NCBI GenBank assembly: GCA_030649135.1
Contig: JAUSGI010000005.1
Coordinates: 5,754-69,753, forward strand
Length of the DNA stretch: 64,000 nucleotides
Direction: 5' to 3'
From: a bacterium
Lineage (GTDB): Bacteria > Patescibacteriota > Minisyncoccia > Phycocordibacterales > Zambryskibacteraceae
The position numbers and the translations under genes are program-made. This document shows positions 2,413 through 54,343 of this stretch, piece by piece (within the stretch, counting starts at the first letter, position 1; every line of letters starts with the position of its first letter). The notes beneath the pieces are model-generated. The model saw only the letters and a list, made by a program, of their open reading frames with translations, made no database searches and had not been told where the DNA came from.

Positions 2413-3147
2413 ATGATCAAAGATGTATTTGATAAGGCTTTTAAGAGTTTCTGCAAACTCCTGACTTTTTACAGATATTCCTGAAAGTCTTTTCCCGAGT
2501 ATGGCTATTTTCACACGATCGCCATAAATCGTTATGTCACTTGTAATCGGATACTTTTCATGATCTATTTTAATTCTTTCTCCAGTGCTATCAGACGGTT
2601 TATCGATAATTTTCGAGGTGTAAATTGATTTCGACCTGATTCCTCTGGAAATCCTTTCCTCTCGCATATTCGTCGTTTCTTTTTCAGTAAATAGATCTTT
2701 TACTAAATCTAGTGGATATACCATATAGACTGGTTCGTCATCGAGTTTTTTTACAAAAGTATCATCGTTGGAACTCAAGACCCCTTCCTTACCATCGAAA
2801 AACTGGACTATAGGTTTTCCTACTCGCTCTCCTTGGAGACCTCTCAATTGGGGGATGATGATATCTAAGCTTTTTTTGTTTTCCTCTAGAAGGTGAATTT
2901 GTCTCTCAACAAAGAAACCGAGTTTCTCCGGTGGTTCGGCTAGGTAATAAGTCTTTTTACCTATATTGGTCTCACTTACAAGACCCTTTTTAGCCAAAGA
3001 GTCGAGAATGACATAAGTTGTTGGTCTTTTAACTTTCGCTTTTTGTGAGATCTCTGATATTTGAGCCTTGTCGAAAGAGAGGAGGGCGACATAGACTGCC
3101 GCTTCCTTATCGCTCAATCCTATATCCCTGAGATATTTCTCGAACAT
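2407..3147 (-). CDS. TrmB-family transcriptional regulator
   Basis: N-terminal winged-HTH pattern MFEKYLRDIGLSDKEAAVYVALLSF...EISQKAKVKRPTTYVILDSLAKKGLV, as in TrmB regulators. Confidence 0.6.
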   Translation of the reverse strand: MFEKYLRDIGLSDKEAAVYVALLSFDKAQISEISQKAKVKRPTTYVILDSLAKKGLVSETNIGKKTYYLAEPPEKLGFFVERQIHLLEENKKSLDIIIPQLRGLQGERVGKPIVQFFDGKEGVLSSNDDTFVKKLDDEPVYMVYPLDLVKDLFTEKETTNMREERISRGIRSKSIYTSKIIDKPSDSTGERIKIDHEKYPITSDITIYGDRVKIAILGKRLSGISVKSQEFAETLKSLIKYIFDHK

Positions 3148-3180
3148 ATATTAAATGATAGCATGACAGAAACTCTGCTG

Positions 3181-4119
3181 TTACTTCCTCCTTGAATGAA
3201 ACCTTTTGTGGGTATCGCGAAGCGCCTTGTCGGTGACGTGGGTATATATTTGAGTTGTCGAAATATTGGCGTGGCCGAGAAGCATTTGGACGCTACGAAG
3301 GTCGGCGCCATTGCTTAAAAGATCAGTAGCAAAGCTGTGACGAATAACGTGAGGTGTCACTTTTTTTGAAATGCCGGCTTTTATCGCATAATGCTTCACA
3401 ATTCTTTCTATCGAGCGGCGAGTGAGAGGAAGGGAGTCTTTGGTTTTAGTGTTTTTCCCTACCTGAACAAAGAGGGCATCATTCATATCCTTGCGAGCTT
3501 TGAGATATTTGGATACGGCGTTTCTCGCTTCATCAGAAACAAAGACTACCCGCACCTTACTGCCTTTACCCCTGATAGAAAACTCCCCGACAGAAAGATC
3601 AGTATCATTATTTAACGAGCAGAGTTCGGATACACGAAGCCCTGTGGAGAAAAGCATTTCAAGGATAGCTTTGTCGCGAAGTTCTTTAATTCCATCGCCT
3701 TTGGGCATCTCAAGTAGGCGAGTGAGTTCGGCAGGGGAGATGAGATCAAGAGAGCGTTCTCCAACTTTAGCCAGTTCAATGCGTTCTGCTGGCAGACTTG
3801 TAATTTCTTGCCGAGCCAGATACTTGAGAAAAGAGCGTAAGGCAATCAGATAATAATTCTGCGTCTTCTTCGACATGGTTTCACCGGTTTGTCGGTTATT
3901 GCCGGTCGACTGGCGGTTAAGCCACATCCTAAATTCTCTCACCACTTCGTCACTAATATCCTTCGGATTTTTTACTTCGGTATGCTTAAGAAAAACGGAA
4001 AGGTAGTGGTCATAGTTCTCAATAGTCTTGAGTGCCCGGCCCTTTTCGATCTCGGTATATTCCAGAAATCCTCTCTTTAATCGCTCTAGTTCACTAACAT
4101 TCCCCATATTGTGCGACAT
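3181..4119 (-). CDS. tyrosine site-specific recombinase (XerC/XerD / phage-integrase family)
   Basis: Catalytic-domain motifs LRVSELCSL, HVIRHSFATDLL and LLGHANISTTQIYTHV (R-H-R-Y signature). Confidence 0.85.
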   Translation of the reverse strand: MSHNMGNVSELERLKRGFLEYTEIEKGRALKTIENYDHYLSVFLKHTEVKNPKDISDEVVREFRMWLNRQSTGNNRQTGETMSKKTQNYYLIALRSFLKYLARQEITSLPAERIELAKVGERSLDLISPAELTRLLEMPKGDGIKELRDKAILEMLFSTGLRVSELCSLNNDTDLSVGEFSIRGKGSKVRVVFVSDEARNAVSKYLKARKDMNDALFVQVGKNTKTKDSLPLTRRSIERIVKHYAIKAGISKKVTPHVIRHSFATDLLSNGADLRSVQMLLGHANISTTQIYTHVTDKALRDTHKRFHSRRK

Positions 4120-4490: not shown

Positions 4491-4525
4491 AGGGCCGCGA
4501 CGTCGTCGCGGCCCTCTTTTCATTT
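4491..4525 (+). terminator. rho-independent terminator
   Basis: AGGGCCGCGACgtcGTCGCGGCCCT followed by CTTTTCATTT. Confidence 0.7.
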
Positions 4526-4573: not shown

Positions 4574-4840
4574 GTGATTTCAAAGACCAGAAAACTTAAG
4601 CTCATCAAGGAAGTAGCCATCCACGAAAAGGATACGGGCTCTCCTGAAGTGCAAATTTCCATACTGACAAAGCGTATCGAGGATTTAGCCAAACATCTCA
4701 AAACGCATGCCAAGGACAATCACTCGCGTCGCGGGCTTCTCGCCATGGTGGCGGGGCGCCAGGCGCATATGAAATATTTGGAAAAGAAAAGTCCGAAACG
4801 CGCCAGAGCTTTAGAAAAGAAACTTGGTCTGAAGAAATAA
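4574..4840 (+). CDS. rpsO: 30S ribosomal protein S15
   Basis: ...DTGSPEVQISILTKRIEDLAKHLKTHAKDNHSRRGLLAMV... matches the conserved S15 core. GTG start. Confidence 0.9.
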   Translation: MISKTRKLKLIKEVAIHEKDTGSPEVQISILTKRIEDLAKHLKTHAKDNHSRRGLLAMVAGRQAHMKYLEKKSPKRARALEKKLGLKK

Positions 4841-4864: not shown

Positions 4865-5407
4865 ATGACAGTAATAAAACATAAAGCCCAGCGGGTCGGC
4901 ATTTTCATAGACACGCAAAACATTTATCACAGCGCCAAAAATATTCACCACGCCAAAGCAAATTTTGGCGCGATAGTGAAGGACGTACTCGATGGACGGG
5001 TGCTCATCCGCGCTTTAGCCTACGTGGTCACTACCGAATCCGGCGAAGAAAACGCCTTCTTCGGCGCGCTAGAAAAAGCGGGTATCGAAATACGTTCGAA
5101 ACCATTGCAAATATTTCTCGGTGGAGCCAAGAAAGCGGACTGGGATGTCGGATTGGCAATTGATGCCGTCACTATGGCACCCAAACTCGACAGCATCATC
5201 CTCTTGTCCGGCGATGGAGACTATGTGCCTTTGGTAGAATACATTCAAAACACCCATGGTTGCCAGGTAGAGGTAGTGGCCTTCGGCAAATCATCTTCGG
5301 CGCGTCTGATTGAAGCGGCCGATGACTTTATCGACCTCGACCAGAATCCTAAAAAATATCTTCTCAACACCAACAACATAAAACTTCGTGAAGGAGGCGT
5401 CAGATAG
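4865..5407 (+). CDS. NYN-domain (LabA-like, PIN-like) protein
   Basis: VGIFIDTQNIYH...DVGLAIDAV...LLSGDGDYVPLVEYIQ...VEVVAFG pattern of the NYN/LabA family. Confidence 0.8.
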   Translation: MTVIKHKAQRVGIFIDTQNIYHSAKNIHHAKANFGAIVKDVLDGRVLIRALAYVVTTESGEENAFFGALEKAGIEIRSKPLQIFLGGAKKADWDVGLAIDAVTMAPKLDSIILLSGDGDYVPLVEYIQNTHGCQVEVVAFGKSSSARLIEAADDFIDLDQNPKKYLLNTNNIKLREGGVR

Positions 5408-5441
5408 TTCGACCAACTCACTACAAGTGAGTTAGAATAGA

Positions 5442-6308
5442 GTGATGAATCCGGAAGAAACTCCTTTAAAACAAATTCGCACCTTTCAAGGAGATGTAGC
5501 GGAAGCACTCCAGAAACAGCAAGGCTCGCTCGTCTCGATTCAACAAGCGGAACATTTAAGAACAAGGAACCGTCTTTCGGCTACCGATACCGCCACAGAA
5601 CAACCTAACAAAAGAAAGGAATTCGTCGTGCTCCTTTTAGGAAGCTTTGTTCTCCTCGCCCTAAGTGTGGGCGGGGGCTGGTATGCTTACAACGAATATG
5701 TGAGAAGGTCCGCCACTCCGATTACAACCGCACCGGCAAACAGATTTATATCGGCCAATACCGAAGCCAATATAATGCTTGCGGCCACTTCACGCGATAC
5801 TCTTTTTCAGACTCTTTCCGATGCCATCAAGGGCATGGCCTCCGGGGAACTTAGACATGTCGTCTTGCGAAAGGGTTTGACGAAAGAAACGGCTTATCTG
5901 TTTCCCACAAGCGAATTTTTGGTAGCACTCGAGAGCCGGGCTCCCGGCGGGCTGGTACGAGCTTTCGACCCGCTTTTCATGTTTGGAGCTTCCGGAAAAA
6001 GTGCCTTCTTAATAATTAAACTGGCCTCTTTTGAAAATGCCTTTGCGGGCATGCTCGCTTGGGAGAAAAATATGAGTCAAGATATCGGACCTCTATTTGC
6101 CACCGCCACGCTCTTGAAAGATATGCCGCCCGAAGCCGTCTTCACGGACCTGATAGACAAAAACAAGGACGTTCGGGTCCTTGCGCTCGGCAAGGAGCCA
6201 GTTCTCCTTTACTCATTTGTCGACAACAATATGCTTATCATCACGGATAATATCGAGACTTTAAGAACTCTCGTAGACCGCCTGACGCGAGAAAAACTTT
6301 CCCGTTAG
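5442..6308 (+). CDS. hypothetical membrane-anchored protein
   Basis: Single predicted TM segment (FVVLLLGSFVLLALSVGGGWYAY). No recognisable domain. Confidence 0.5.
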   Translation: MMNPEETPLKQIRTFQGDVAEALQKQQGSLVSIQQAEHLRTRNRLSATDTATEQPNKRKEFVVLLLGSFVLLALSVGGGWYAYNEYVRRSATPITTAPANRFISANTEANIMLAATSRDTLFQTLSDAIKGMASGELRHVVLRKGLTKETAYLFPTSEFLVALESRAPGGLVRAFDPLFMFGASGKSAFLIIKLASFENAFAGMLAWEKNMSQDIGPLFATATLLKDMPPEAVFTDLIDKNKDVRVLALGKEPVLLYSFVDNNMLIITDNIETLRTLVDRLTREKLSR

Positions 6309-9217: not shown

Positions 9218-11203
9218 ATGTTTTGTACCAATCTTTCACTAACCATTATAACCTCATATGATATAGTGTCCAGCATGTCGAAACTCTCGGGAAATCTCAA
9301 CTCTCGACAGCAAAAAGCGGTCGCCTCTATAGCGGGACCGGTCTTAATCTTGGCGGGTGCCGGCGCCGGTAAAACCCGCACTATTGCTGAGAGAATCCGC
9401 CACCTTGTTCATGCTGGCGTGGCCCCTTCGGCCATCCTGGCCATTACCTTTACCAACAAGGCGGCCAGGGAGATGCGCGAACGGATAGAGCGGGGATTGA
9501 GAGACAGCCCCGAACAACCTTTTGTCAGCACATTCCACTCTCTGGGGGTATATATCCTGCGAGAACAGTCGGCAAAAGTGGGCATCAAGAAACACTTCAC
9601 TATTTTTGACCGAGACGATAGCAAAAAAGCGGTGAGAGAGGTACTGATAACTCTCGGACTTGACCCGAAGACACATGACCCCGGCCGCATTATGAGCATC
9701 ATTTCGAGAGAAAAGGGTAGGGGTATAGGTACGGAGGCTTATGGCGACAACGAGACACGTGGCTATTTTCAAAACGTGATAGGGCAAGTCTGGCCGGCAT
9801 ACGAGAAACTGCTCGCAAGAGACAACGCGCTTGACTTCGATGACCTGCTTGTCAAAACCATGGGCCTCCTCCGCGACGACCGTGCGGTGCGCGAGCTTTA
9901 CCAAAATATTTGGAAATATATCCATATAGACGAGTACCAGGACACCAACCGAGTCCAATACGAGATTTCAAAAATGTTGGTGGGAGAAAATAAAAATATC
10001 TGCGTGGTAGGGGACATAGACCAGAACATTTATTCTTGGCGTGGCGCGGATATCAAAAATATTCTCGACTTCGAGAAAGATTACCCGAACGCGCAAGTAA
10101 TTACACTAGAAGAAAATTATCGTTCCACCAAAACAATTCTCGAAGCAGCCAAAGTGGTGATAGAAAAAAATAAAATCAGGTTTAAAAAGAATCTTTTCAC
10201 AGATAACCCCGCGGGCGAGAAAATTGGCTTGTTCGGAGGCTTCGATGAATCAAGTGAGGCGGAGTTTATCGCTAGCAGAGCCGAAGTGCTCATCAAACAA
10301 GGGGTGTCGCCGGGAGAAATTGCGGTACTTTTCCGAGCAAACTTCCAGTCGCGAGTACTCGAGGAAGCATTCATGAATCGCGGTATTCCTTACCAACTCC
10401 TCGGCACACGATTCTTCGAACGCAAGGAAATCAAGGACGTAATTTCATATCTGCGTGCCGCCCTTAATCCGGAGAGTCTTTCGGACTTTAAGCGCATCAT
10501 CAACGTGCCGGCGCGCGGTGTCGGCAAGACTACGGTGCTGAAAATATTTGCGGGCAACGAGTCAACCCTGCCACAAACAATGAAAGTCAAACTGACAAGC
10601 TTCAGAAAACTGCTTAACGAAATCGCACAAGTTTCACAAACGAAGAAACCGAGCGAGACTATATCTTTCATTATCAAAGTATCCGGACTGGAACAAGAGT
10701 GGAAAAATAGTGGAGATGAAGGCGTGGCCCGACTCGAGAATGTCTACGAATTGGCAAACTTTGCTTCCCGATACGATAGCTTACCTCCGGAAGAGGGTAT
10801 TTTGAACTTCCTCGCGGATGCGGCGCTTCAGAGCGACCAAGACGAAATGAAGGACGGGGTACCTGCGGTACGTCTAATGACTGTGCACGCTTCCAAAGGT
10901 TTAGAGTTCGATATTGTTTTCGTCACCGGACTTGAAGATGGGCTCTTCCCACACCGGAAGGCAAATGAGGAAGCCATCGGTCAGGAAGAAAGAGAGGAGG
11001 AACGCAGGCTTTTTTATGTCGCGCTCACCCGTGCGCGCAAGAAAGTGTTTCTTTCGTATGCCGAGACACGCACCCTCTTTGGCAGAAGGCAAGTCAATAT
11101 ACCTTCTGAATTTATTTTTGATATTCCCGAAACGTTGGTTGAGGAAGAGTCTTTCGATGAGCATAGTCTACCCAGAAGGCCTCTCCTCCAAATCGATTTC
11201 TAG
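9218..11203 (+). CDS. UvrD/PcrA/Rep-family DNA helicase
   Basis: Helicase motifs AGAGKTRTIAERI, DEYQDTN, VGDIDQNIYSWRGA. The start may be the ATG at 9275. Confidence 0.9.
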   Translation: MFCTNLSLTIITSYDIVSSMSKLSGNLNSRQQKAVASIAGPVLILAGAGAGKTRTIAERIRHLVHAGVAPSAILAITFTNKAAREMRERIERGLRDSPEQPFVSTFHSLGVYILREQSAKVGIKKHFTIFDRDDSKKAVREVLITLGLDPKTHDPGRIMSIISREKGRGIGTEAYGDNETRGYFQNVIGQVWPAYEKLLARDNALDFDDLLVKTMGLLRDDRAVRELYQNIWKYIHIDEYQDTNRVQYEISKMLVGENKNICVVGDIDQNIYSWRGADIKNILDFEKDYPNAQVITLEENYRSTKTILEAAKVVIEKNKIRFKKNLFTDNPAGEKIGLFGGFDESSEAEFIASRAEVLIKQGVSPGEIAVLFRANFQSRVLEEAFMNRGIPYQLLGTRFFERKEIKDVISYLRAALNPESLSDFKRIINVPARGVGKTTVLKIFAGNESTLPQTMKVKLTSFRKLLNEIAQVSQTKKPSETISFIIKVSGLEQEWKNSGDEGVARLENVYELANFASRYDSLPPEEGILNFLADAALQSDQDEMKDGVPAVRLMTVHASKGLEFDIVFVTGLEDGLFPHRKANEEAIGQEEREEERRLFYVALTRARKKVFLSYAETRTLFGRRQVNIPSEFIFDIPETLVEEESFDEHSLPRRPLLQIDF

Positions 11204-11216
11204 TCTCTTACCACAT

Positions 11217-11235
11217 GTCGACTCCGGGAGTCGAC
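11217..11235. repeat. REP-like perfect palindrome GTCGACTCCGGGAGTCGAC (copy 1, upstream of the RAYT gene)
   Basis: 19-bp perfect inverted repeat. Near-identical copies at 11421-11439 and 11890-11908. Confidence 0.7.
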
Positions 11236-11266
11236 AGCAAGCTGATAAAAGGGCTATAATTCAATT

Positions 11267-11920
11267 ATGAGAAACGTAAAACTAGTTGAAAACGAACTTT
11301 ATCACGTGATGAACCGAGGTGTAGATAAAAGGTCAATCTTCCGGGACAAAAACGACCTGGACAGATTTTTTGAGGGAATGCAGAAACTAAATGTGCTGAC
11401 TCCAACTGGGCACTTAGCTCGTCGACTCCCGGAGTCGACAGACAAGAAGCTTGTTAAGTTCATAGCGTATGATTTGAACCCAAACCACTTTCATTTTATC
11501 TTGGAACAGGCTGCAGAAAGAGGCATAGAACGGCTAATGAATCGGCTCTGCATATCGCATTCAAAATATTTTAATCTTAAGTATCATAGGATGGGCACTT
11601 TATTCCAAGGTAGATTCAAAGCAATTCATGTTGATACGAACGAATACCTGCTTCACTTAAGCGCTTATGTGAATCTAAACGATGTAGCACACACCCGCAA
11701 CAGTAAACCGGGACTGTCTAAATCAAGTTGGGTAGAATATATTGGCGAGTCAAGAGAAGAATTTTGCGATAAGTCAATAATACTTGATCAATTTAAAAAT
11801 GGAGGAGAATATAAGAGGTTCGCTGAAAGCACTTTGCGGGACATTATTGATCGAAAGATTTTGCTAGCAGAACTAGAAGACGAATTGATGTCGATTCCCG
11901 GAGTCGACAAGGCGATATGA
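11267..11920 (+). CDS. REP-associated tyrosine transposase (RAYT, IS200/IS605-like Y1 HuH transposase)
   Basis: YHVMNRGVDKRSIF, HuH motif NHFHFILE, LFQGRFKAIHVD, and the catalytic-Tyr region YLLHLSAYVNLN. Flanked by REP-like hairpins. Confidence 0.8.
   Translation: MRNVKLVENELYHVMNRGVDKRSIFRDKNDLDRFFEGMQKLNVLTPTGHLARRLPESTDKKLVKFIAYDLNPNHFHFILEQAAERGIERLMNRLCISHSKYFNLKYHRMGTLFQGRFKAIHVDTNEYLLHLSAYVNLNDVAHTRNSKPGLSKSSWVEYIGESREEFCDKSIILDQFKNGGEYKRFAESTLRDIIDRKILLAELEDELMSIPGVDKAI
11421..11439. repeat. REP-like palindrome copy 2 (GTCGACTCCCGGAGTCGAC) inside the RAYT coding sequence
   Basis: Encodes RRLPESTD within a segment that looks like an extra insertion relative to other Y1 transposases. 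Confidence 0.65.
11890..11908. repeat. REP-like palindrome copy 3 (GTCGATTCCCGGAGTCGAC) at the RAYT 3' end
   Basis: Overlaps the last RAYT codons, just before the ksgA start. Confidence 0.65.
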
Positions 11921-12702
11921 AAGCAAAAAAGTCATTGGGGCAGCATTTTTTGAGAAGCGAGAAAGCCTTGCGCGCAATTGTCGAGACCGGAGACATTAAC
12001 CATGGTGAAACAATCTTGGAAATAGGGCCTGGGCGGGGAGTTCTGACAAAAAAACTCTTGGAGGCCGGCGCGAAAGTAATCGCAGTAGAAAAAGATGACG
12101 AACTCTACGAACTTTTGCGGCAAGTATACGAAAAAGAAATTGAAAACGGGAAACTTGAATTAATTCATGGCGATATTATTGAATTTGATTTGTCTAAGCT
12201 AGCAGCTAAAACCTATAAGCTAGTGGCCAATATTCCATACAATATTACAGGCGCTATTTTAAAAAAATTCCTTGAGACAAATTGTCAGCCGGAGAGAATA
12301 GTGCTTTTGGTACAGAAAGAAGTAGCCAAAAGAATCGTGGCTCAAGACGGCAAAGAAAGCATTCTTTCTGTTTCAGTCAAAGTATATGGGGCACCAAGAT
12401 ATATAGAAACGGTAAAAGCAGGTTCATTTACTCCCATGCCCAAAGTAGATTCGGCTATTATTCTCATAGATAACATTTCCAAAAAATATTTTGCTCATTT
12501 TTCCGAAAAAGATTTTTTTACAACGGTTCGCACTGGATTCAAATCCAAACGCAAAAAACTTTCTTCCAATCTTTCGGCAATATTTGCTAAAGAAAAGGTC
12601 CTGGAAACATTTCGAAAACTGAATTTAGACGAGAATCTGCGAGCCGAGGACGTCGGGATTGAGACTTGGGGAAAACTTGTTACCCACCTGTGCTCTGATT
12701 AG
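11917..12702 (+). CDS. rsmA: 16S rRNA (adenine1518/1519-N6)-dimethyltransferase
   Basis: LGQHFL, ILEIGPGRGVLTKKL and NIPYNIT motifs of KsgA/RsmA. The start overlaps the RAYT stop. Confidence 0.9.
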   Translation: MKAKKSLGQHFLRSEKALRAIVETGDINHGETILEIGPGRGVLTKKLLEAGAKVIAVEKDDELYELLRQVYEKEIENGKLELIHGDIIEFDLSKLAAKTYKLVANIPYNITGAILKKFLETNCQPERIVLLVQKEVAKRIVAQDGKESILSVSVKVYGAPRYIETVKAGSFTPMPKVDSAIILIDNISKKYFAHFSEKDFFTTVRTGFKSKRKKLSSNLSAIFAKEKVLETFRKLNLDENLRAEDVGIETWGKLVTHLCSD

Positions 12703-19803: not shown

Positions 19804-20445
19804 ATGTCTCCGAGTACAAATGCTACTCAAGAATTTGTTCCCATCAAGGAAGTGCGCGACGGCGTCGTCCTACTGAAAGATGGCGGCATGCGTGCCATTC
19901 TCTTGTGTTCGTCTCTAAACTTCGCGCTTAAATCCGAGGATGAGAGGCAGGCTATTCTTCTGCAGTTCCAGGATTTTCTTAACTCCCTAGACTTCTCGAT
20001 TGAGATAGTAGTGCAGTCGCGCAAACTCGATATCCGGCCATACATAGCGCTACTCGAAGGGCAAGAAAAAATACAAACCAACAGTCTGATGAAAATACAG
20101 GTTCGAGAGTATATTGAGTTTATCAAGAGTTTCACCGAAAACACGAATATCATGACTAAAAACTTTTTCATTGTGGTGCCATACAGTCCGGCCATGTTGA
20201 ATGCCCATAAATCAGGGGGTATCGTCTCGCGCCTTGGATTCGGTACCAAGAGAGAGCGCGCGGCCGCCACAGAAGCGGGATTTGACGAAAATCGTAGCCA
20301 ACTGGAAGAGCGGCTATCGGTGGTTGAACAGGGACTTATCCGTACCGGTATCCGCGTGGTGCGCCTCGGCACGGAAGAAGTCATTGAACTTTTTTACAAG
20401 GCCTTTAATCCGGGGGAAACGGAAAAGCCACTAAAAGTGAGCTAG
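19804..20445 (+). CDS. hypothetical protein (resembles the N-terminal region of VirB4/TraC)
   Basis: EFVPIKEVRDGVVLLKDGGMRAILL... Ends in a strong palindromic hairpin. Confidence 0.45.
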   Translation: MSPSTNATQEFVPIKEVRDGVVLLKDGGMRAILLCSSLNFALKSEDERQAILLQFQDFLNSLDFSIEIVVQSRKLDIRPYIALLEGQEKIQTNSLMKIQVREYIEFIKSFTENTNIMTKNFFIVVPYSPAMLNAHKSGGIVSRLGFGTKRERAAATEAGFDENRSQLEERLSVVEQGLIRTGIRVVRLGTEEVIELFYKAFNPGETEKPLKVS

Positions 20446-20469
20446 CTCACTTTTAGTGGCTTTATTCAC
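20427..20469 (+). terminator. perfect 16/16 palindrome GCCACTAAAAGTGAGC-tagc-TCACTTTTAGTGGC followed by a T-run
   Basis: The stop codon of the upstream ORF sits in the loop. Likely an intrinsic terminator or an operator. Confidence 0.55.
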
Positions 20470-54292: not shown

Positions 54293-54306
54293 TCCGAGCG
54301 CAGCAA

Positions 54307-54343
54307 GGCGTGGGGAGGAATCTCCCCACGCCTTTTAACTTTT
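54307..54343 (+). terminator. rho-independent terminator
   Basis: GGCGTGGGGAG-gaat-CTCCCCACGCC followed by TTTTAACTTTT. Confidence 0.8.

Follow-up and report, generated by a model that had tools for sequence, protein, structure and literature searches.

A RAYT-like Y1 gene of Patescibacteria with short palindromes at recurrent positions, some of them read in frame

The Y1 gene and its hairpins in the window

The window analysed here is a stretch of 64,000 nucleotides (64 kb) from a Patescibacteria genome (GenBank assembly GCA_030649135.1, contig JAUSGI010000005.1, positions 5,754 to 69,753). It contains a gene for a Y1 protein with a HUH motif, which resembles the REP-associated tyrosine transposases (RAYT; REP, repetitive extragenic palindrome), together with three copies of a short palindrome, one of them inside the coding sequence. 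The features of the locus are listed below in window coordinates.

11267-11920, plus strand: Y1 HUH endonuclease gene, RAYT-like, 217 aa (Pfam, alignment, AlphaFold2 model, fold match)
11486-11494, plus strand: codons H74-F75-H76 of the HUH motif; H74 and H76 invariant in 32 aligned relatives
11666-11668, plus strand: codon of Y134, the presumed catalytic tyrosine (Y-V-N-L-N); Y134, N136 and N138 invariant
11216-11236, no strand assigned: upstream (UP) hairpin, TGTCGACTCC-G-GGAGTCGACA, 10-bp stem with the flanking T/A; core 11217-11235
11421-11439, no strand assigned: internal site-1 hairpin, GTCGACTCC-C-GGAGTCGAC, in frame, R52-T58 (RRLPEST)
11889-11909, no strand assigned: 3'-end (END) hairpin, TGTCGATTCC-C-GGAGTCGACA, 9 of 10 pairs with the flanking T/A; core 11890-11908
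11687-11716, plus strand: site 2, after the Tyr helix, empty in the window (AHTRNSKPGL); hairpin in about 47 of 78 relatives; low-confidence loop 141-150
11231-11260, plus strand: promoter-like site; -35 TCGACA (11231-11236) is the right arm of the UP hairpin, 18-nt spacer, -10 TATAAT (11255-11260)
9218-11203, plus strand: uvrD/pcrA-type helicase gene, the conserved upstream neighbour (Pfam UvrD-helicase and UvrD_C); also upstream in 13 related loci
11917-12702, plus strand: rsmA/ksgA 16S rRNA dimethyltransferase gene, the conserved downstream neighbour (Pfam RrnaAD; synteny)

The 217-aa open reading frame (ORF) contains the motifs HFHFIL (residues 74-79), LFQGRF (112-117), YLLHLSAYVNLN (127-138) and LTPTGHLARRLPESTD (44-59). 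It matched Pfam Y1_Tnp (PF01797) with 33.2 bits against a gathering cut-off of 23, which bears out the Y1 HUH protein that the first-pass annotation had read from these motifs. All 32 aligned relatives also matched Y1_Tnp in Pfam, and nothing besides. The residues H74, H76, Y134, N136, N138 and, in the C-terminal part, S154-W155 were invariant in this alignment. About 1976 homologues were found, from Patescibacteria metagenome bins, and nearly all of them are unnamed or called 'transposase'. The protein is predicted to be a RAYT-like endonuclease for single-stranded DNA (ssDNA) from a large family specific to Patescibacteria. The catalytic role of Y134 is presumed by analogy with the class-2 Y1 enzymes, whose Y-x3-N-P motif is only half present: Y-x3-N is kept, and the position after Y134-V-N-L-N138 holds D in the window and N, H, E, G or Y in the relatives, with P in 0 of 32 sequences. 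H74 and Y134 are 60 aa apart, and the C-terminal extension of about 80 aa carries an SKSSW tail.

The AlphaFold2 model of the protein (mean predicted local distance difference test score, pLDDT, 85.5; predicted template modelling score, pTM, 0.82) has a RAYT-like fold. The top Foldseek match was 4ER8_A, the E. coli TnpA_REP bound to a REP hairpin (E 2.7e-6, target-normalised TM-score 0.66). The TnpA enzymes of IS608 and ISDra2 ranked next, and 4ER8, 2VJV, 2A6M and 2XM3 all reached an E-value of 1e-3 or better. Low confidence was confined to residues about 41-60, 141-150 and 208-217, and the three hairpin-encoded stretches coincide with these three loops. The first of them (about 41-62) is an extra loop relative to canonical Y1 enzymes; in the Pfam comparison, region 33-136 exceeds its matched profile stretch by 11 residues.

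Each of the three hairpins in the window consists of 9-bp arms around one unpaired central base (9+1+9). They had been described in the first-pass annotation as three perfect 19-bp palindromes; the coordinates were right, whereas the perfection was overstated. The exact plus-strand 19-mer occurs only at 11217-11235 (centre G), and the copy at 11421-11439 is its reverse complement (centre C). The copy at 11890-11908 (centre C) has one arm mismatch, a T at 11895, which the sense RNA could accommodate as G-U. The site-1 hairpin falls in a low-pLDDT loop, after helix 28-40 and ahead of the strand that leads to the HUH motif. The END copy is read in frame as M208-S-I-P-G-V-D214 and is directly followed by the Shine-Dalgarno-like AAGG of rsmA. 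No match with up to three mismatches appeared in 100 dinucleotide-preserving shuffles of the window, compared with the three sites observed. As ssDNA, the plus strands of the three copies fold with -5.5 to -8.9 kcal/mol; the UP copy gave -8.9 kcal/mol (z = -4.5). At the empty site 2, only a weak, out-of-register near-palindrome could be seen by eye and no hairpin scan reported it, so a relic hairpin is not claimed there. Another near-palindrome, TTCACTTAAGCGCTTATGTGAA at 11652-11673, lies over the HLSAYV codons of the catalytic helix. Its family mean of 4.75 of 9 pairs is slightly above the 3.86 expected from codon usage, and it is probably a by-product of the peptide.

The UP hairpin overlaps a promoter-like site with an 11/12 consensus match, which is a consensus-level assignment only. 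The -10 hexamer ends 6 nt before the ATG in the window and 6-9 nt before it across the family, and no Shine-Dalgarno sequence precedes the start codon, which predicts leaderless mRNAs for the Y1 genes. Of 64 loci, 27 have a -10-like hexamer beginning 0-7 nt past the UP stem, compared with 4% at random positions, and 23 of these 27 also have the TG of an extended -10. Autoregulation through the hairpin copy in the promoter is plausible from this arrangement.

The neighbourhood of the gene is conserved. The rsmA start overlaps the Y1 stop as ATGA, the gap between uvrD and Y1 is 63 nt, and the order uvrD-Y1-rsmA is common to 14 loci in all. It includes the closest relatives, whose Y1 proteins are 61-68% identical to that of the window; across the 14 syntenic loci the range is 49-72%. 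The neighbouring proteins gave comparable identities to those of the window (UvrD 58-80%, RsmA 44-66%). A search for a second member of the Y1 family in the 64-kb window found none. The genomes of relatives can hold several members, and the paralogous proteins within one genome are 60-79% identical rather than near-identical. Given the synteny in 14 loci, the Y1 gene is therefore passed on vertically and does not hop as an insertion sequence (IS). Inverted segments between hairpins were suspected in L046, L053, L062, L061 and L023 (L-numbers denote related Patescibacteria loci), where the gene finder had failed; tblastn gave single intact matches, and the suspicion was dropped.

Hairpin positions and sequences across the family

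A total of 80 genomic loci of homologues were fetched and scanned for hairpins, and the counts cover 78 genes. The hairpins concentrate in four places: some 30-45 nt before the ATG (UP), at about +175 before the HUH motif (site 1), at about +460 after the Tyr helix (site 2), and at the stop codon (END). Among the 78 loci, 68 have the UP hairpin, 60 the one at site 1, about 47 that at site 2 and 67 the END copy; all four are found in 33. The window has three of the four, site 2 being the one it lacks. The hairpins are 19-35 nt long, with stems of 9-21 perfect bp and loops of 1-5 nt. Perfect GC-containing hairpins occur at 1.56 per kb in the interior of the Y1 coding sequences, compared with 0.137 per kb in the flanks (11x). 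The END copy abuts the stop codon in most loci; in the clade of the window the reading frame passes through it.

The centre of a site-1 or site-2 hairpin invariably coincides with the middle base of a codon, which makes the reading frame symmetric, and in 31 of 40 loci the site-2 centre is exactly 46.5 nt downstream of where the S.Y[VI]NLN motif begins. These fixed positions and frame argue for a single ancient origin of the two internal hairpins rather than repeated insertion. The 'extra' segment before the HUH motif is present in all aligned relatives, and its peptides (such as RLPES, RNPVS, GHRVS, RHGVS and GSPAS) are codon-palindromes. The window hairpin has the foot TGTCGA and most relatives have (C)ACTTGG, and a search for a conserved guide-like flank beside the hairpins found none. 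In several orthologues with ACTTGG-type hairpins the internal copies are wholly absent, and in L002 they have decayed; the internal copies are therefore dispensable for the gene.

The hairpins of one locus share their sequence. The inner 7-nt arm is identical in 68% of hairpin pairs within loci, compared with 1.65% between loci; 38 distinct hairpin cores were counted in 59 loci, and paralogues in one genome mostly carry different hairpins. Concerted evolution is seen in the four closest orthologous loci, which have the same three sites occupied by GTCGACTCC (the window), GTCGAAACC (L201 and L206) or GTCGTCTCC (L204). Each variant stands on both arms of all three copies.

The two arms also covary. 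In an ungapped alignment of 45 site-1 hairpins, 96.5% of the cells were Watson-Crick paired, a percentage inflated by the choice of sequences as detected hairpins, with a detector that counts Watson-Crick pairs only. Double compensatory changes were found at 8 of the 9 stem pairs. The covariation score was 0.674 against 0.195 in shuffles (0/500 reached the observed value), and slid partners gave at most 0.14. G-U pairs occupied only 2 of 405 cells. Stem mismatches were G:T in 28 cases and A:C in 27, which shows no sense-strand bias, although this is a weak test that includes over-extended stem ends. Between a third and a half of the copies have the loop in flipped orientation. The equal mismatches, the rarity of G-U and the loop flips together point to a constraint that acts on the DNA rather than on the sense RNA.

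Copying of the hairpin and its incomplete rewriting were both found in relatives. In L201, an identical fourth copy of the cognate hairpin, TGTCGAAACCCGGTTTCGACA, lies at 5093-5113 in frame inside rsmA. It adds six residues (MSKPGFD) that are not in the RsmA of the window, L204 or L206, and this new in-frame insertion is fixed in three samples. The relatives' flanks, 289 kb in all, contain a further 11 distant copies of locus-specific hairpins, some of them inside other long ORFs. In L012, which has the same variant type as L002, the upstream copy is GTTGACAC/GTGTCAAC, whereas sites 1 and 2 both read GTGGACAC...GTGTCAAC and are half-converted. Their right arms follow the new variant by a synonymous TCC-to-TCA change, and pairing is sacrificed. 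The left arm stays GTGGACAC because GTTGA (GTTGAC) in that frame would introduce a TGA stop. The half-conversion therefore indicates that identity to the cognate sequence is imposed, beyond mere foldability.

Other palindromic stretches were also observed in the relatives. The rsmA of L204 (about 5356-5466) has a 37-aa in-frame insert with three hairpin-like stretches, which are different palindromes. In that of L206 (about 3769-3800), GGACGC-CTA-GCGTCC is inserted in frame and encodes GRLAS. Palindromes inserted in frame may be frequent in these genomes. Next to canonical hairpins, additional arm copies or expanded hairpins were seen in L204 (about 4636-4664) and L206 (about 2410-2443 and 3126-3160). 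They comprise CGGAGACGAC twice, a repeated GGGTTTCGACA and a 17-bp double hairpin, and look like slippage or processing scars.

Proposed role of the enzyme and alternative explanations

Taken as a whole, the explanation that we consider fairly probable is a RAYT-like Y1 enzyme, vertically inherited, that co-evolves with a short cognate palindrome as a low-copy REP-like element. The enzyme would recognise the hairpin extruded on ssDNA, and the window sequence GTCGACTCCSGGAGTCGAC would be its putative target on either strand. It would nick and rejoin the DNA beside the hairpin by means of a HUH-bound metal and Y134. This activity could occasionally copy the hairpin to new sites and keep the copies of a locus alike. 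The copy embedded in the promoter may allow the enzyme, or the extrusion of a cruciform, to influence transcription of the Y1 gene itself. The intragenic copies would persist because they lie in permissive surface loops and in a stop-free symmetric frame.

Several points weigh against this explanation. The protein scored only 21.9 bits with the NCBIfam RAYT equivalog NF047646, below its cut-off of 80, and searching the PDB by sequence, whether with the profile or with the protein alone, yielded no match even at E = 10. The hairpin lacks the GT[AG]G foot of canonical REPs. The first-pass label of a RAYT-type protein thus holds for the closest fold, 4ER8, and for a gene bracketed by its own hairpin, and fails on the equivalog score and the foot. 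No further copies of the palindrome with up to three mismatches occur elsewhere in the 64 kb, contrary to the dispersal in the manner of REPs or bacterial interspersed mosaic elements (BIMEs) which that annotation had envisaged, so that REP-like spread is seen only in relatives. A scan of metagenomes with the degenerate 19-mer GTCGANNCCSGGNNTCGAC returned only single chance matches, almost all of them from GC-rich contigs and all lacking a Y1 gene; the pattern was too loose to speak for or against dispersal. Several relatives, for example L014, L024 and L030, keep an intact gene with few or no hairpins, so that the gene can be maintained without them. The paired percentage is inflated as described above, and the promoter is assigned by consensus only. 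Finally, the concerted evolution could stem from ordinary gene conversion or from stepwise selection, and not from the enzyme.

A further reading is that the promoter and intragenic hairpins are protected master copies rather than passengers, by which the enzyme would sense its own level and which would serve as templates for rewriting all copies by enzyme-catalysed strand exchange. We consider this unlikely. If it were true, the half-converted hairpins of L012, in which only the change that leads to a stop codon is blocked, would be a natural footprint of the rewriting, and they would give a handle on how REPs are copied and homogenised.

It is likewise unlikely that the palindromes are mainly double-stranded operators for a DNA-binding dimer, perhaps formed by the Y1 protein through its helical C-terminal part, with ssDNA catalysis irrelevant to their upkeep. 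The promoter copy would then be bound, and the intragenic and 3' copies would be auxiliary operators that act by looping, as lac O2 does inside lacZ. Such a role fits the overlap of the UP copy with the -35 and spacer of a good promoter match, and it is compatible with autoregulation. It also fits the likeness of the locus copies in sequence and not in fold alone, the arm identity that L012 keeps at the expense of pairing, and the mismatches without strand bias. However, perfect stems of 9-21 bp with loops of 1-5 nt and strict Watson-Crick covariation are typical of extruded hairpins and not of half-sites. Moreover, the catalytic HUH and Tyr residues are invariant, a hairpin has been copied into the rsmA of L201, and Pfam detected no DNA-binding domain in the C-terminal part of the protein.

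A role as RNA elements of a uvrD-Y1-rsmA transcript, where they would stabilise the mRNA, mark processing sites or slow translation and have only their position in common with the Y1 gene, appears still less likely. The genes are tightly packed and probably co-transcribed, with the 63-nt gap and the ATGA overlap noted above, and the END arm mismatch would pair as G-U in the sense RNA. REPs are also known to act as RNA elements (PMC3733652). Against such a role stand the mismatch counts, with no excess of G:T over A:C, the scarcity of G-U pairs and the flipping loops, as well as the position of the UP copy upstream of the predicted transcription start. A generic RNA function would not need a hairpin sequence of its own for each paralogue. 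No Rfam match was found in 11000-12100, nor any intrinsic-terminator-like site or terminator-like T tract.

We regard as very unlikely that 11204-11920 is an active IS200/IS605-type insertion sequence with left-end and right-end hairpins flanking a tnpA. The Y1_Tnp domain, the IS200-like size of about 700 bp, the hairpins at both ends and the several family members per genome in relatives would suit such an element. However, the chromosomal position is constant in 14 loci despite the divergence of their Y1 proteins, the paralogues within one genome are far from identical, and the 64 kb hold no second copy. The end hairpins are identical palindromes and not a differing left-end and right-end pair, Y-x3-N stands in place of the Y-x3-Q Tyr motif of IS200 (Table 1 of PMC6006769), and no tnpB is present.

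Least probable of all, to the point of being dismissed, is the proposal of the first-pass annotation that a REP was recently inserted in frame, in this lineage only, into an ordinary RAYT gene and became the internal hairpin: the excess length of region 33-136, its low-confidence loop and the fresh in-frame insertion in the rsmA of L201 lend it some colour, and the segment is indeed an extra loop relative to canonical Y1 enzymes, but the homologue alignment which that annotation had itself named as the check shows the segment to be family-wide and not peculiar to the window gene, and about 60 of 78 relatives have a hairpin at the homologous site with an unchanged frame, among them all four close orthologues with conserved synteny.

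Comparison with known systems and other palindromes

The window family shares with the RAYT/TnpA_REP system of E. coli (4ER8) the Y1 HUH fold, as its best structural match, and a low-copy, vertically inherited gene bracketed by its cognate hairpin. Each paralogue also has its own repeat family, as reported for tnpA_REP (PMC6006769). The two differ in that the window family has no PDB sequence match and falls below the NCBIfam RAYT cut-off, has the Tyr motif YVNLN[D/N] without proline, and has the C-terminal extension of about 80 aa. The window hairpin is also without the GT[AG]G foot, and with 0 copies in the rest of the 64 kb it is very low-copy instead of being dispersed in many intergenic copies.

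The TnpA_Y1 proteins were classified by Quentin, Siguier, Chandler and Fichant in 2018, who described in-frame REPs inside tnpA_REP as a unique feature of subclass 2.4 (PMC6006769). A REP read in frame within its own transposase gene, which the first-pass annotation had called unusual, is thus less unprecedented than supposed. The members of subclass 2.4 (Bertels group 4) resemble the window family in having cognate REPs inside their own reading frame, with the frame kept and in a peripheral variable region (PMC6006769). Their REPs lie between HuH and Y, which are a median of 88 aa apart (PMC6006769), whereas the window family has the canonical distance of 60 aa and keeps its hairpins outside the HuH-Y core: one precedes HuH, one follows Y and one is C-terminal, each with a fixed position and frame (residues 52-58 and 208-214 in the window). 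The motifs of subclass 2.4 are NH[IFV]H, WQ and YIxNNP (PMC6006769); those of the window are NHFH, which fits, FQ and YVNLND. The REPs of subclass 2.4, which come from Cyanobacteria and Bacteroidetes, carry GT[AG]G double feet (PMC6006769), whereas the window family belongs to Patescibacteria and has no GT[AG]G. In-frame REPs in the gene of their own enzyme are thus already known, and here they occupy other positions in another phylum. Patescibacteria are not mentioned in the text of the 2018 survey (PMC6006769), and a search of a paper library on RAYT, REP or Y1_Tnp with Patescibacteria or the candidate phyla radiation (CPR) found no description of the window family.

Subclass 2.1, or TIRYT (Di Nocera et al. 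2013; Quentin et al. 2018), is similar in its motifs NH[YF]H, FQ and Y[IV]xLN, in its median length of 238 aa (PMC6006769), and in a C-terminal tail with conserved serines, which is SKSSW in the window family. The Tyr motif is Y[IV]HLNP in subclass 2.1 and YVNLN without proline in the window, a comparison made by motifs. Subclass 2.1 has terminal inverted repeats (GGGGWSAS) and no REP-like hairpins have been reported for it (PMC6006769), whereas the window family has perfect local palindromes. The IS200/IS605 TnpA enzymes (IS608, ISDra2) share the fold and the catalytic motifs, and their recognition of subterminal ssDNA hairpins would be the expected mode of action here. In contrast to these elements, the window locus is immobile as a unit, its end hairpins are identical, it has Y-x3-N instead of Y-x3-Q, and it has no tnpB.

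The Rickettsia palindromic elements (RPEs) are 100-150 bp long, and no dedicated enzyme is known for them, whereas the hairpins of the window family measure 19-35 nt and are tied to a Y1 gene. RPEs and intragenic REPs are alike in being short palindromes tolerated in frame in functional protein-coding genes, according to work cited in PMC3733652; the genes concerned here are the rsmA of L201, L204 and L206.

How RAYTs copy and homogenise REPs, and what the domesticated enzymes do for the cell, are open questions in the field. The present family is a compact natural system in this respect, in which a single enzyme goes with three or four hairpin copies whose fixed positions can be compared between loci. 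Its concerted changes, one caught insertion and one frame-blocked conversion make the enzyme-hairpin specificity and the unit of conversion tractable by comparison. In the streamlined Patescibacteria, short palindromes are written in frame into protein-coding genes, even that of a core rRNA methyltransferase. Such in-frame palindromes matter for annotation and for the reading of lineage-specific protein insertions.

The window contains other palindromes as well. In this AT-rich genome, GC-rich perfect hairpins with stems of 10-13 bp were found at 2236-2258, 2376-2404, 4491-4515 and 54305-54334. These four lie outside ORFs or overlap ORF ends, and their sequences are unrelated to the Y1 hairpin; they may be terminators or belong to other repeat families. 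A perfect 40-bp palindrome (20-nt arms, no loop) at 20424-20463 overlaps the 3' end of the ORF at 19804-20445.

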